From a virus: DNA of 38,795 nucleotides. Under the pieces are notes generated by a model, which saw only the letters and a program-made list of their open reading frames with translations, was not told where the DNA came from and made no database searches. Location of the stretch: UHGV virus genome UHGV-0423091; one strand, 5' to 3'. The position numbers were made by a program, and so were the translations under genes. Of this stretch, positions 3,484 to 33,675 are shown piece after piece. Each line of letters begins with the position of its first letter. Positions within the stretch are counted from its first letter, which is position 1.

Positions 3484-3947
3484 TATTTTCTCTCCATGTG
3501 AAATCTGTGGAAATTAAGACCAAGGGCACCATAAGGCGCGGCTTCTTCAAGCCTGAATCCAAGCCAGTGCAGCCATGCTTTGGCAACATGGTTTCGCTCG
3601 TCGACGTAGTTTTCCAGGCGCGGATAAACTGCCAGCATCTGCTGCAATACAGGGCGGCAGTGGCGAAGAAATGTCTTCTGATATTTTTCAATACGGCTGG
3701 TTCCGACCAGCCAGGGCGTACCATTGCCACCGATCATTGACGCCGGAGATACGCCAAACATGGTTACCAGTTCTCCGTTCGCAAATCCTGACCAGGCCAT
3801 AGTCGCAGTACGCAGACCAACACGCAGCGCATCTTCGGTAGTCATCAGTGATACCGCATACAGTTCGTCAATATCAGCCTGACGAACATCCGGCAAAATC
3901 ATCTGAAGATGCTCTTCGGTTGCGGGAATAATTTGAACATCGATCAT
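3483..3947 (-). CDS. hypothetical virion-associated protein, 154 aa
   Basis: Track ORF; translationally coupled on both sides (ATGA overlap at 3945-3949). Confidence 0.5.
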   Translation of the reverse strand: MIDVQIIPATEEHLQMILPDVRQADIDELYAVSLMTTEDALRVGLRTATMAWSGFANGELVTMFGVSPASMIGGNGTPWLVGTSRIEKYQKTFLRHCRPVLQQMLAVYPRLENYVDERNHVAKAWLHWLGFRLEEAAPYGALGLNFHRFHMERK

Positions 3948-6418
3948 CAGAATCCCCCAACAGTAAGGCGAGGAATAACGGCAAGAACAGACAGCGGCAA
4001 CGGATCAAGCTGACGGATTTTTACACGCCCGTTTTTGCCCCAGTTACTGTCCAGTTTCACTTCTACTTTTCCGGTAGCATCATCAACAGGATCATCGTAG
4101 AACTCGAATTCACGCTGTGGATATTCGTACCATTTACCGCCGGGCGTAGTCGCCCAGATGCCGCGACTGGCATTCACAACCAGAGTAACGGAGGGGATCA
4201 CCTGTTTTTTGTCCAGCAGCGTTTCCTGTCCGTTAATGTTGATATCCAGTGTTTCGAATTCAGCAGTTATTGGCAGGCCGATGTGCACTACAGCCCCCGG
4301 AGATTCCAGCGTGACGGCACCTCCGGAAACCACTTTCTGTGGTTCCACGTTCGCATCAGAGAGAATGTTTACGGTCTGGCCTTCAAGATGAGACAGGCCT
4401 CCAAATGTCCGGCGCGCCATCTGCCAGTTCGTGGTGGCCACATTCCTGAGGGATGGCGGGACGTTCCTGTTAGCACGAACCACTACAGCGGTATTACTGG
4501 TTACAGAAATAATGTCGCAACGTAATTCTTTTGACACCTCATCGCCAGTATCAGGATCAGTTCCGGTATAAGGGAACTGTAGTTGCGCGCCGACATCACT
4601 ACTGGTGAAGTACGCACCACCAGAAACACTGATTGTATATTCCGCGCGGTAATCCCATTCGCCAGAACCACCAGTGATGATCATCGTTCTGTCAGACGTA
4701 TTTCTTCCATCATAGCTAAGGCCAGAATCAACAAAGAAAGCATCTTCATCGCTGGTAAATAAACGGCTGGACAGTCGCTCGATGTATCTCACTGTTTGCC
4801 CGTTAACGGTTCGGTTAACGACGAAATACACCGCATCTTCATTGCCTTCGCTGATACTGCATGTGCTTTCATATTTTCCGGTACTGGATTGTGGTGCCCA
4901 TGCAAAAACCTGCTGATCACGCAAATAGGTCATCACCAGTAATTTACCGTCATCACGGATGCAGAAGGCGCTGGAGTAAGGGACTATTGAGAAGCACCAG
5001 TCAACAATGCTGTGCTTCTGAAAAAGATGATTGGCAAGGATAGTAAGGTCGTTCCCCTGATAGCCGTCAACATCGAATGAGTAGGCGAGATCACGGACAA
5101 CACTGCCTTTCTCCTGGACGAACAGAGCAATATTCGCCACGGCAATTGGTGGGACATTGCTCGAGCCATTTGATCCCTGAGAGCTGAATGCAAATGATGA
5201 TGGGGTAAGCACTTTGTTCTGGTCGCCAGTGATGACGTACTCACCTCCGGAAGTCAGCGCCACCAGCGAACCAACATCAATCAGGTGACGGATCTCATTA
5301 ACCTGACGCCCGGCATAGGTGTAGATAATTCTGTCGTCATCCTGCGTAGGATTGCTTTTGCCAAAATCCTTATAATCCCCAGTACGGCTGGCCCAGATAG
5401 TCTGAGGGAACGCAGTCGATGCGGCGAAGTAAAGACGTTGTTGATAATAAACAACAGTGCCAGGATAACCATTAACACTGTTCCAGGCATATTTAGCCCA
5501 TTTATAGCTGGCATTATCCTCGCCAACGACCTGCGAAGGGATATAGGAAATCACCTCGGCAGTTGCAGTAGTGCCGTTTACAGCAGTGATACGGGCAATG
5601 CCAAAACCACTGTGCAGATACTCCCACTCAATGCCAGTATCATCATCACCGGATCCGCCCCAGCCATCCCATGATGTGCCTTCTGTATGCGAAGGGCGCA
5701 AAGTGCCTGTTTTGCCTGCTGTAACGGCGCGATAGTAGTTACTGTCTGCACGGCGAATATCGCCAATCGACGTACTCTTACTGGTTTCCCATACCGGCAC
5801 TGAATCCACTGCAGGCTGTTCCAGATAGAACAATTTGCCTACCTGCTCCGCGCCAAAAATAGAGGCGCTTGCCGTTAACGTAATTGTCCCGGTGCTGGCG
5901 CTGGCATAAACCGTCACTGACTCGTCAATATTGATATCTTCAAATGGCCCGTTCTTCGTTACCACATCAACCAGTTGCCAGTTGTCATGCGCATAGCGGC
6001 GCAACTCTTTCGGCGGGTATGCCGGGTGAACCAGCGTAAGCACGTCGGCGCTTTGCGTAAATTTAATTCGGAACAGATCGGCTTCAGTATATGGCGTGGC
6101 AATTTCATAAATAACATTGCTGCTGTTCAGCACCAACGCACCATCTTTGATAACGCGCATGTACTGGTGCCCGAACTCCAGAGCATAGGTCTGAACCGTC
6201 GAGAACTGGAACGGGATCAGGCGGCATTTCCGATTTGGGTATTTGGCGGCACCGACAAAACGCGTACCAGGTCGATTCTCAACGCCGCCATACTGCCGCA
6301 CGATAAAGTTATCGCACTTGCGCAATGCCACCTGGTACTTCGCCATGTCGATACGACCGTACAACGACGGTCCAATCTCACCACCGGCAAAGCTGGGCTG
6401 GATCCAACTGATAGCCAT
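3947..6418 (-). CDS. large tail structural protein (tail hub/tube-type), 823 aa
   Basis: Track ORF; size and position directly after the adaptor-like gene in the morphogenesis operon; no enzymatic motif seen. Confidence 0.6.
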   Translation of the reverse strand: MAISWIQPSFAGGEIGPSLYGRIDMAKYQVALRKCDNFIVRQYGGVENRPGTRFVGAAKYPNRKCRLIPFQFSTVQTYALEFGHQYMRVIKDGALVLNSSNVIYEIATPYTEADLFRIKFTQSADVLTLVHPAYPPKELRRYAHDNWQLVDVVTKNGPFEDINIDESVTVYASASTGTITLTASASIFGAEQVGKLFYLEQPAVDSVPVWETSKSTSIGDIRRADSNYYRAVTAGKTGTLRPSHTEGTSWDGWGGSGDDDTGIEWEYLHSGFGIARITAVNGTTATAEVISYIPSQVVGEDNASYKWAKYAWNSVNGYPGTVVYYQQRLYFAASTAFPQTIWASRTGDYKDFGKSNPTQDDDRIIYTYAGRQVNEIRHLIDVGSLVALTSGGEYVITGDQNKVLTPSSFAFSSQGSNGSSNVPPIAVANIALFVQEKGSVVRDLAYSFDVDGYQGNDLTILANHLFQKHSIVDWCFSIVPYSSAFCIRDDGKLLVMTYLRDQQVFAWAPQSSTGKYESTCSISEGNEDAVYFVVNRTVNGQTVRYIERLSSRLFTSDEDAFFVDSGLSYDGRNTSDRTMIITGGSGEWDYRAEYTISVSGGAYFTSSDVGAQLQFPYTGTDPDTGDEVSKELRCDIISVTSNTAVVVRANRNVPPSLRNVATTNWQMARRTFGGLSHLEGQTVNILSDANVEPQKVVSGGAVTLESPGAVVHIGLPITAEFETLDININGQETLLDKKQVIPSVTLVVNASRGIWATTPGGKWYEYPQREFEFYDDPVDDATGKVEVKLDSNWGKNGRVKIRQLDPLPLSVLAVIPRLTVGGF

Positions 6419-8231: not shown

Positions 8232-9224
8232 TTACACCACGCGGGCTTCTGTTTCCAGAAGCGCATCAGTTTCACGGATTGGTACACCACGGAATGACGT
8301 CCACCACTCGCCTTCAGTCTCTTTTACGCTAATCGCCAGAGATGTTTTCTCCAGAGACTGCAAATCAAGAGCCTGGCCTACAGTGCGGTTCATGTAGAAC
8401 ACCGGGCGCCCCATGCCACGGTTTGGAATGCGATGCAGTGCTTTAACCATCAACTTCGCAATATTTGCGGCAGAGGAAGGTTCTGAAAGATTGCTGACAT
8501 CGATGTTTGCAATGCGAACAACATAACGCCAGTCACGCAGAGCAAGTCCGTTATCCCATTTGTAATGGGTACGGTAGCCTTCGTACTTGCCGCCATTAGC
8601 ATCTTCCAGTGTCACCTGGCCTTTATCTTCCATCTGAATGCCAGCCTTCTGCCCTTTCGGGAAGATGCCATGCACGGTGTTTTCGCCCCACACCACTAAC
8701 CAGATTGAGGTGTTATCTGTACCCGTGCCACCAGCATCAATGATGTTCTGAGCATTACCTGCAGACAGGCTGGAATAGCGGGAGGACAGTCCCATAAACT
8801 GCTGAGGGTTAACGCTGGAATCACCATAAAACAGCGTCTGCGCCATCTGCTGATTCATCGCTTCAATAAATGCGCGGTCTTCAGACAGGCGGAATTCGGC
8901 GGTATTACCGTTCAGATCAGCCAGTGACTTATCGACTTCAGCATAGGTTTCCAGCATTCCAACGGAATCGGTGACCTGCACTGTGGTTGATTTGCTTGGC
9001 TGTACGCCATAGTTCAGCAAACGCCAGGTGGCTGAAGGTAAACCAGAACGAATGGTGGTTCGGTGTCCGGTAGGAAGGTTCCCTTCGACAAAAGGCATAT
9101 CCTGAAGGATCGGGTTAGTTTGACCGAGAAGTTCGATAATCTTATCGACTTTCCCGTTTGGATCGACGCGCTTACCCCAGTCAGCCAGCGTTAGCGCAGT
9201 TAAGCCTTTAACAGCCATTGTCAT
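8232..9224 (-). CDS. major capsid protein, 330 aa
   Basis: Track ORF; position after portal and scaffold; size typical of HK97-fold coat proteins. Confidence 0.7.
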   Translation of the reverse strand: MTMAVKGLTALTLADWGKRVDPNGKVDKIIELLGQTNPILQDMPFVEGNLPTGHRTTIRSGLPSATWRLLNYGVQPSKSTTVQVTDSVGMLETYAEVDKSLADLNGNTAEFRLSEDRAFIEAMNQQMAQTLFYGDSSVNPQQFMGLSSRYSSLSAGNAQNIIDAGGTGTDNTSIWLVVWGENTVHGIFPKGQKAGIQMEDKGQVTLEDANGGKYEGYRTHYKWDNGLALRDWRYVVRIANIDVSNLSEPSSAANIAKLMVKALHRIPNRGMGRPVFYMNRTVGQALDLQSLEKTSLAISVKETEGEWWTSFRGVPIRETDALLETEARVV

Positions 9225-9232
9225 TTCCTCTC

Positions 9233-9934
9233 TTATTTGCCATAGAGCACTTCGGCCGCACTACGCTGGCCTTCATTACCACCGGTGACCATGTCATCTT
9301 CAGACATCGCCTTTCCGATTTTCACGAACGTTTTGACCAGATCAGGGTGATTACCCAGTCCGGTGGTGTTCAGATATTCTTTGAGTTCAGGTGTCCCGAA
9401 CTGGTCAAGCGCACGCTGTGCGGCGCTAAGGTTAGAAATCAACTTGTCGCCACCGATTTCTTTGTCAGCTTTTACATCAGCAGCCCACTGCTCGGTCGTT
9501 TTCTGCCAGGCTTCTGCCTGACGCTGCTGCACACCTGCCAGAATCTTCGGATAAGCATCAACCAGCTTTTGCGCTTGCTCGTTGGTCAGGTTAAGTTCTC
9601 GCGCCACCGGCTCGAATTCCTTCAACGCTTCTGTATCCAGCTCTACGCCTTCGGCAGCCTGAAACTCGTACTTCTCCGGCGCACCCTCCGGTTTATCGCC
9701 GTCCTTTTTTTCACCCTGTTTATCGTTTTCAGATTTTTTTTCATCATCAGGTTTATCGACATCAACAACAGGTTGTGGCTTATCATCTTCCTGTTGTGAT
9801 GGATCACCAGCTGGAGCAGGGTTATCACCTGCATGCGCTGACGGTTCTGACGCAGCCGGAGCTGCCCCACCATCGACTTGTTGCTCATTGCAAAGACGGC
9901 GATACAGCAAACGCTCAAATAAACTCATGATCAC
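9233..9934 (-). CDS. scaffolding protein, 233 aa, highly acidic with Lys/Glu/Asp repeats
   Basis: Track ORF between portal and capsid; acidic low-complexity central region and helical C-terminus typical of scaffold proteins. Confidence 0.5.
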   Translation of the reverse strand: MIMSLFERLLYRRLCNEQQVDGGAAPAASEPSAHAGDNPAPAGDPSQQEDDKPQPVVDVDKPDDEKKSENDKQGEKKDGDKPEGAPEKYEFQAAEGVELDTEALKEFEPVARELNLTNEQAQKLVDAYPKILAGVQQRQAEAWQKTTEQWAADVKADKEIGGDKLISNLSAAQRALDQFGTPELKEYLNTTGLGNHPDLVKTFVKIGKAMSEDDMVTGGNEGQRSAAEVLYGK

Positions 9935-20448: not shown

Positions 20449-20649
20449 TCAGCTTGAATGTTGTGGGGAGGAATTAATCATGATCTGCTTAATCTCTGCC
20501 CTGATACGACGGTTTGATTCCATGGTGCACTCAACACAGTGTCCGTTGTAAACCCAGCGTTCACTGTCATGTCCGTGCTTACATGTTTTTCCGGTGTAGT
20601 AGCGTTTAAGTCCGCGCTTTGCGGCATCAATACGTGTAATGATTTCCAT
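20449..20649 (-). CDS. small Cys/His-containing protein, 66 aa (CII-position gene, function unknown)
   Basis: Track ORF trimmed to ATG 20649; CKHGH...CVEC motif; sits between the Cro-like and O-like genes. Confidence 0.4.
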   Translation of the reverse strand: MEIITRIDAAKRGLKRYYTGKTCKHGHDSERWVYNGHCVECTMESNRRIRAEIKQIMINSSPQHSS

Positions 20650-20729
20650 GGTAAGCCCTGTTATTAGTATTGGGATTACGGTCATTTTGTGCTGACACAA
20701 AAAAAATATCAACCAGATTTGGTTTTTTA

Positions 20730-28295: not shown

Positions 28296-28593
28296 GTTTA
28301 GACCTCGATATTTTGAAAATCTGAACAACGTTACCGCGTGTTTTAATAACCGCGGCAAGCATGACAGCGTTGATAATGACCTCAGATAAATCCACAGCCA
28401 TTGGCGTGCGTAACCAGATTGCATAGACGACACGAACAGGAATACTGGCCGCAGCAACAATAAGGAAATAAGCAAGCCACCCTCCCCATCTTCGATGTTG
28501 AGAGCCGTTACGCCGGAATGTGACAACGCGAATTGCTATGCCAGTACAAATAACTGCATTGGTGATAAGCAAAAAAAACTCATGCGTTACCAT
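28285..28593 (-). CDS. holin or antiholin, 102 aa, about three transmembrane segments
   Basis: Hydrophobic small protein immediately upstream of, and overlapping, the endolysin start. Confidence 0.5.
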
Positions 28594-28996
28594 CGTCTTT
28601 TCTCCCCGGAATTAAATCGCGTGGATTGTCTGAACGGTGGTAGAGCCATATACCAATACGCACAGCGACAATTGCTGACACGAATGCGCCAGCAGAGAAA
28701 ACAATACCTTTTTCAAAAGAGTCCTGCGTGATGGTAGGGATCAGGCTGGCTATGCCGATAAGAATTGATGCTGCTGGTTTGTAGAAAAGAAGTCCGCAGA
28801 GAAAGCTGAGCATCGACAAGAGTACGCGACGACGAATTGGATACTCTACCGCAGAGGTAACAAAAATTACCGCACCAGCAAGAGCACCGAGCGCCACCTC
28901 TGGCGGAACACCTACGATAACCGCAGCAAGAGAGCTCACACTAAGCCATTGATTTAAAGACTCAGTTGTTATGTTAACCGACATAGCACACACCAT
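28580..28996 (-). CDS. holin-like membrane protein, 138 aa, about four transmembrane segments
   Basis: First gene of the lysis cassette; overlaps the next membrane-protein gene by 14 bp. Confidence 0.5.
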   Translation of the reverse strand: MVCAMSVNITTESLNQWLSVSSLAAVIVGVPPEVALGALAGAVIFVTSAVEYPIRRRVLLSMLSFLCGLLFYKPAASILIGIASLIPTITQDSFEKGIVFSAGAFVSAIVAVRIGIWLYHRSDNPRDLIPGRKDDGNA

Positions 28997-29159
28997 TTTT
29001 TTTGTACATATCGAACCTCTTCACTTACAGATCACCACACACAACAAACCATATATGTTTAACTATCAGATATTCTGAAATAACTATCAATTCATTGGTT
29101 TTTGATGACAATATTCATAAACAACCATAAATGTAAGGCGGTTTATTAGTTGCCAAAAT

Positions 29160-33348: not shown

Positions 33349-33675
33349 ATGACAAAACTTGGATTCGTGATGAGAGGTCCGGTAAGAAGCGGAACTCATG
33401 CAAAGCGTAGCAAGAGTCGTATTTTTACTGGTAAGGTTGTAGCACGTAAATCAGCTATTGGCTCGTTCAATAGTGAAAATGCGGCATTGCGCCATATTTT
33501 TATCAGCACAAAGCCAAGAGCATCCGCTGATGTGCATACAATGACTATTCCTATCACAAAGAATATAAAGCGGATAAAAAAGCTCTCATCTGCAGAATCA
33601 AAAGAGATATCTTTCCGCCAGCTTAACTCATTAGAAACGCATATGAAGGAAGAGGAATTCGATGTTTTTGAGTGA
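33349..33675 (+). CDS. highly basic small protein, 108 aa (accessory module gene 1)
   Basis: GGAG SD 7 nt upstream; Lys/Arg-rich; AT-rich codon usage; overlaps the next gene by 14 bp. Confidence 0.5.
   Translation: MTKLGFVMRGPVRSGTHAKRSKSRIFTGKVVARKSAIGSFNSENAALRHIFISTKPRASADVHTMTIPITKNIKRIKKLSSAESKEISFRQLNSLETHMKEEEFDVFE

Follow-up and report, generated by a model that had tools for sequence, protein, structure and literature searches.

Two adenine runs, of seven and eight nucleotides, in the gene between the portal and capsid genes of a phiV10-like phage are, on the evidence of sequence comparison, very probably incidental by-products of coding and neither programmed recoding sites nor phase-variation sites. 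We analysed them within the window, that is, the whole 38,795-nt stretch of viral DNA. An earlier note had placed an A7 and an A8 run in the lysine-rich region of a scaffold gene, and both were confirmed there, each encoding Glu-Lys-Lys (Table 1). It had also proposed that slippage at the runs could generate truncated or frameshifted scaffold variants or, alternatively, that they may simply reflect Lys-codon bias. Codon usage, codon resampling and the conservation pattern support the second proposal. The first, understood as a programmed or selected feature, did not hold up: conservation, stimulators and natural frameshifting length variants were all lacking, and the shifted frames end fast.

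In the account that we favour, a disordered, acidic and lysine-rich linker happens to contain Glu-Lys-Lys twice, and the preferred codons GAA and AAA turn each occurrence into a run of 7-8 As. The gene would make one full-length product of 231 aa. Slippage by the ribosome, the host RNA polymerase or the DNA polymerase would stay at error level, and slipped products would be short dead-end N-terminal fragments, about 66-98 aa long and devoid of the conserved C-terminal domain. We infer that slippage in infected cells would be negligible.

The gene carrying the runs and its probable product

The window derives from a phiV10-like temperate podophage, a Uetakevirus-type phage or prophage. Its ten largest ORFs besides the gene studied here encode structural proteins, terminase, integrase, RecT and lysis proteins. 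As these ten include an integrase and no phage RNA polymerase, the gene probably depends on host RNA polymerase for its transcription. Its DNA is 96-97% identical to that of phiV10, TL-2011b and other E. coli podophages, and the gene was found in 536 of the 5,426 complete E. coli genomes. The protein shares 74% identity with epsilon15 gp6 and 46% with Bbp18 of Bordetella phage BPP-1, and matches PHROG 458 (E = 1e-107, PHROG label 'protease').

The start codon is the ATG at 9928, which lies just beyond the stop codon of the upstream gene and is preceded by AGGAG at 9938-9934 with a spacing of five bases; the equivalent ATG is the annotated start in relatives. The program-listed ORF 9233-9934 (minus strand) opens with a GTG at 9934, two codons before this ATG. 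An ORF on the plus strand (9218-9799, 193 aa) runs antisense to the gene and translates the T-runs as Phe runs. We rejected it as a real gene, as it is the shadow of a well-supported minus-strand gene and is itself without support. Neither T-run on the plus strand coincides with a terminator-like or promoter-like site.

Table 1. Features of the gene and its linker. Residue numbers of the runs are counted from the ATG at 9928.
Feature	Position	Strand	Description	Basis
Gene holding both runs	9233..9928	-	231-aa homologue of epsilon15 gp6 ('putative endoprotease') and BPP-1 Bbp18	
Linker	9683..9886	-	Asp/Glu/Lys/Pro/Gly/Ala-rich, low complexity, residues ~15-82; holds both runs	alignment, AF2, variants
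A8 run	9734..9741	-	sense GAT GAT GAA AAA AAA TCT, Asp-Asp-Glu63-Lys64-Lys65-Ser; plus strand TTTTTTTT (T8)	
A7 run	9705..9711	-	sense GGT GAA AAA AAG GAC, Gly-Glu73-Lys74-Lys75-Asp; plus strand TTTTTTT	
Weak hairpin	9677..9701	-	CGGCG...CGCCG, 5+3 bp, about -11 kcal/mol; starts 2 nt past A_AAA_AAG	
9-nt direct repeat, copy 1	9690..9698	-	CGATAAACC (Asp-Lys-Pro)	sequence
9-nt direct repeat, copy 2	9750..9758	-	CGATAAACC; exactly 60 nt upstream of copy 1 in the gene	sequence

The label 'scaffold' given by the earlier note proved plausible by position and by the all-helical prediction, but homology to an experimentally defined scaffold was not found. The gene order is portal (PF12236, T7-type), Bbp19-like (PF25181), the gene studied here, capsid (PF20911) and Bbp16-like (PF21190); the major capsid neighbour is of the GP7 type and 330 aa long. 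A location between portal and major capsid genes is what would be expected of a scaffold gene, as is the prediction of an all-helical, partly disordered protein. Considering the gene position, this prediction and the 330-aa capsid protein, the product is probably a head scaffolding or assembly protein. A PDB sequence search returned no relative, the protein contains no Pfam domain (E <= 10) and no NCBIfam family, be it scaffold or protease, and hhalign detected no similarity to T7 gp9 (probability 0.4%). No protease domain or catalytic motif was recognisable in searches of Pfam, NCBIfam and PDB, and a literature search on the function of epsilon15 gp6 or Bbp18 found nothing relevant.

Across GenBank, RefSeq and PHROGs, members of the epsilon15 gp6/Bbp18/PHROG 458 family are named 'protease', 'peptidase' or 'endoprotease'. 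The 'peptidase/endoprotease' label goes back to the epsilon15 record, which reads 'similar to S. typhimurium LT2 putative endoprotease', and the protease name appears to have spread from this similarity note. A scaffolding role fits the family better, and the database entry 'protease/peptidase' should probably read 'putative scaffolding/head assembly protein'. A further profile, PHROG 30010 (517 positions, unknown function), matches the protein through its profile positions 22-192 and an 823-aa tail protein (window 3947-6418, minus strand) through its profile positions 188-461. That both the scaffold-like and the tail protein match it suggests that this profile derives from a fused or mis-called protein.

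Codon usage, linker variation and conservation of the runs

In the long ORFs of the window, AAA makes up 66% of Lys codons and GAA 61% of Glu codons. Encoding Glu-Lys-Lys as GAA-AAA-AAR therefore produces a run of 7 or 8 As automatically. We resampled synonymous codons according to the window's own usage, keeping the protein sequence fixed. Under this null model 0.85 sense-strand runs of at least seven As are expected in the gene, with a probability of 0.66 for one or more and 0.18 for two or more. Across the 42 ORF-defined genes of the window, six such runs were observed (6.7 +/- 2.1 expected), together with three in-frame A_AAA_AAR heptamers (4.6 +/- 1.8 expected). The A7 and A8 runs are no more than chance gives.

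A/T runs of 7 or more number 14 in the window, among which the two are not exceptional. Three more of them have 8 nt (20699-20706, 28571-28578 and 28996-29003). On a crude ORF map, two of these three are intergenic or touch the ends of ORFs, in the neighbourhood of the ORF 28580-28996. The remaining one, a T8 when read in sense, is close to the 5' end of a small ORF (20449-20712, minus strand). A second in-frame A_AAA_AAG occurs at gene position 228 of a small 108-aa ORF (33349-33675, plus strand), where the -1 frame would give an extension of 14 codons.

Both runs of the gene lie in its most changeable part. An alignment of 22 homologues, 222 to 251 aa in length, comprises a conserved N-terminus (residues ~1-30), a linker of variable length and a conserved C-terminal domain (~82-231). 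In the low-confidence AlphaFold2 model (mean pLDDT 50), helices are confined to residues 99-229 and residues 15-82 are unstructured (pLDDT 31-35). Across some 190 close copies of the gene (97 unique), amino-acid variability peaks in the linker, and nonsynonymous variants outnumber synonymous ones at codons ~31-80.

The two copies of CGATAAACC bracket both A-runs, and in the 251-aa E. coli homologue P0002 precisely this 60-nt unit is duplicated in tandem (20 aa). Two IMG/VR variants have in-frame deletions in the linker. The repeats are the likely substrate of the 20-codon in-frame duplication and of the deletions in relatives, and linker evolution fits repeat-mediated in-frame indels rather than changes via homopolymers.

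The N-terminal motif M(N/S)LFERLL(H/Y)RRLCNEQxxDGGAAPA (window 9839-9928, minus strand; residues 1-30) is almost invariant in members from Escherichia, Salmonella, Enterobacter, Klebsiella and Citrobacter and absent from BPP-1 Bbp18; one possibility is that it forms a docking helix. In the deposited sequence of Salmonella phage VB_ST_E15 (OR757455.1), a frameshift that is not at a homopolymer falls within the linker at locus ~800-830, and as a consequence the annotated 'peptidase' CDS begins internally, at locus position 662. Either the assembly is wrong at this point or the gene is truly disrupted.

The runs themselves are poorly conserved. The close relatives are 80 from IMG/VR with 93-99% identity. 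A8 is present in eight of these, while the other 72 read GAC AAA AAG, an A5 run. At the second run, 73 have A7-G, a G>A substitution has produced A8 in four, and the remaining three carry A7-T (Lys>Asn). A7 is restricted to this E. coli clade and was found at the equivalent site in none of 12 more distant relatives, whose sampled hosts include Salmonella, Enterobacter, Klebsiella, Citrobacter and Bordetella. In 11 of these 12 no run longer than A6 exists anywhere in the gene; homologues of this kind are those of epsilon15, VB_ST_E15, SPN1S, 66FD, Tyrion, BUCT554, two Klebsiella phages and BPP-1, and further those of two Citrobacter prophages and a Pseudescherichia prophage. The exception is a Scandinavium prophage, where an independent A8 lies elsewhere in the equivalent linker. 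Run length thus tracks the current Glu/Lys-rich sequence of the linker.

Frameshifting, slippage and length variants

Both runs contain an in-frame -1 slippery heptamer of the form X_XXY_YYZ, namely A_AAA_AAA at 9740..9734 and A_AAA_AAG at 9710..9704 (minus strand), and the number of such heptamers is at chance level. Past A_AAA_AAA the -1 frame reads AUC UGA, giving one codon before the stop at 9731-9729 and a product ending in EKK-I. Past A_AAA_AAG it reads GGA CGG CGA UAA, giving three codons before the stop at 9695-9693 and a product ending in EKK-GRR. The +1 frame terminates at 9643. Overall, the shifted frames reach a stop within 1, 3 or about 22-33 codons, and the alternative products are N-terminal fragments of about 66-98 aa which lack the conserved C-terminal domain and gain no other.

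It is very unlikely that A_AAA_AAG (possibly also A_AAA_AAA) directs programmed -1 frameshifting of the dnaX type and so yields a fixed fraction of a truncated polypeptide of ~78 aa. The heptamer is in the proper frame, its -1 stop three codons on would truncate the product as in the dnaX gamma subunit, and a small hairpin follows it. Few heptamers are as shift-prone in E. coli as A_AAA_AAG, which shifts very readily if stimulated, but E. coli heptamers without stimulators shift at just 2-10 times the background of 0.055%, well under 1% (PMC4066793).

The surroundings of the heptamer offer little in the way of stimulation. A stimulatory stem-loop should lie about 5-9 nt downstream and be more stable than background, neither of which applies to the hairpin at 9677-9701. 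Folding of the 60-100 nt downstream gave no significant structure relative to dinucleotide shuffles (z from +0.6 to -1.2). In most relatives, moreover, the 3' arm of the hairpin is altered, the majority haplotype reading ...GCGCCT instead of GCGCCG, which weakens the hairpin by loss of the closing pair. A Shine-Dalgarno-like stimulator, optional in the family and present in dnaX, would be expected some 10-14 nt upstream of the slippery heptamer. No properly spaced element of this kind was found: the sole candidate, AGGGUG, adjoins A_AAA_AAG at 0-nt spacing, and there is no Shine-Dalgarno-like sequence 5' of the A8. An Rfam search (E <= 10) returned no frameshift element but chance snoRNA matches only.

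Selection on a shift site was not apparent either. Synonymous variation around and downstream of the runs is not reduced among the about 190 copies (97 unique), and codons 76-95 rank among the most synonymously variable in the gene. Neither the A8 nor the A7 site is conserved across homologues. While 73 of 80 relatives of the phiV10 clade keep A_AAA_AAG, this retention carries little weight because these relatives are 93-99% identical overall; three close relatives carry A_AAA_AAT, and beyond the E. coli clade neither A7 nor A_AAA_AAG occurs at the site in any of the 12 relatives. We consider it similarly improbable that A_AAA_AAG in the phiV10 clade (the E. coli Uetakeviruses) is a recently evolved dnaX-like -1 site.

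The ~78-aa fragment would combine the conserved N-terminal helix with the acidic linker and end in GRR, and conservation across the genus is high over the first ~30 residues. Even so, a head-assembly role of its own for this fragment is most doubtful. There is equally scant likelihood that the peptide, made up of the MxLFERLLxRRLCNEQ helix and the acidic linker, is released for procapsid nucleation or portal recruitment.

Slippage of RNA polymerase on A8 or A7, producing heterogeneous mRNA and truncated variants at a biologically relevant level, is likewise hardly probable. Homopolymeric A/T tracts are a known substrate of transcriptional slippage, eight As are the threshold of detectable insertion slippage by E. 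coli RNA polymerase (PMC6260861), and certain IS elements of other bacteria make productive use of 8A (PMC1088944). However, the probable transcriber is the low-slippage host enzyme, which prefers poly(T) and whose slippage is undetectable below eight As (PMC6260861). Genome-wide, A/T runs usually show signs of counter-selection only at 9 nt or longer (PMC1088944). Of the 80 close relatives, 72 lack the A8, and the shifted frames end quickly with no sequence gained. Efficient slippage takes at least 9 A/T in most bacteria, and any detectable activity of E. coli RNA polymerase at least 8 A (PMC1088944, PMC6260861); a functional site would also join or extend an ORF or be preserved. The runs, at 7 and 8 nt, are too short for efficient slippage, join or extend no ORF and are not preserved.

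Natural length variants were sought in two collections. Scans of the whole IMG/VR collection for frameshifting A6 and A8+GG alleles gave 0 matches. A gap-tolerant control scan of IMG/VR found the 7-nt form in every match listed (at least 120 contigs), and the window's haplotype at the first run occurs in eight IMG/VR contigs, with exactly 8 nt in each. None of the about 190 gene copies (97 unique) has a frameshift, the only indels being two in-frame deletions. Compared with the 5,426 complete E. coli genomes, the A6 and A8 test queries invariably matched best to the A7 allele, one gap apart (99.1% identity over a 107-nt span; about 166 genomes at >=99%). A spread sample of 30 among 548 E. coli places comprised 28 full-length copies, all exactly 702 nt long. 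The missing frameshift alleles set no bound on the mutation rate, because purifying selection on an essential gene would give the same absence.

In general, slippage mutations arise more often in homopolymers of 7-8 nt than in ordinary sequence (discussed in PMC1088944). That the runs are replicative-slippage 'contingency' sites, switching the gene off and on or making length variants among phages or prophages, can nevertheless practically be dismissed, given zero A6 or A8+GG alleles in IMG/VR or complete E. coli genomes, about 190 copies in frame, existing length variation that is in-frame and arises via the 9-nt DKP repeats instead of homopolymers, and the implausibility of an essential single-copy head-assembly gene as a phase-variation target.

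When phiV10/epsilon15-like phages are annotated, the A7 and A8 runs need no recoding or phase-variation flag, and treating the gene as one ordinary ORF is adequate. Long-read and pyrosequencing assemblies are prone to false frameshifts at A7/A8 tracts, and where a new assembly seems to have a frameshift at either run, an error is the first thing to suspect.

Comparison with known systems

The gene is a full-length member of the epsilon15 gp6 and BPP-1 Bbp18 family (PHROG 458), with which it shares the location between the Bbp19-like and the GP7-type capsid genes. Epsilon15 gp6 differs in its (K/E)P-rich linker, which has another sequence and length and runs of A5 only.

The likeness to E. coli dnaX consists in the identical in-frame A_AAA_AAG, the -1 stop a few codons on and the truncated N-terminal product. 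The dnaX signal includes a Shine-Dalgarno-like element about 10 nt upstream and a stable stem-loop at 5-6 nt spacing. Here, in contrast, AGGGUG abuts the heptamer, and in place of a stable stem-loop there is only a non-significant hairpin of ~-11 kcal/mol at 2 nt. Conservation of the site is also limited to one near-identical clade, and no Rfam frameshift-element model matches.

With genes that use transcriptional slippage (Thermus dnaX with A9, Shigella mxiE with T9, IS elements with A8/A9; PMC1088944), the gene shares an A tract in coding sequence. However, its tracts are shorter (7 and 8 versus 9 or more) and vary in length among homologues, and slippage in them neither fuses nor extends a second ORF. 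A further parallel is the attB1 sequence of the Gateway vector pDEST17 (PMC1851650), where Lys-Lys pairs likewise create a slippery tract without purpose and low-level frameshifting would be an error. The A7 and A8 runs belong with incidental AAA-AAA slippery tracts such as that of pDEST17 attB1, from which they differ in nothing of substance.
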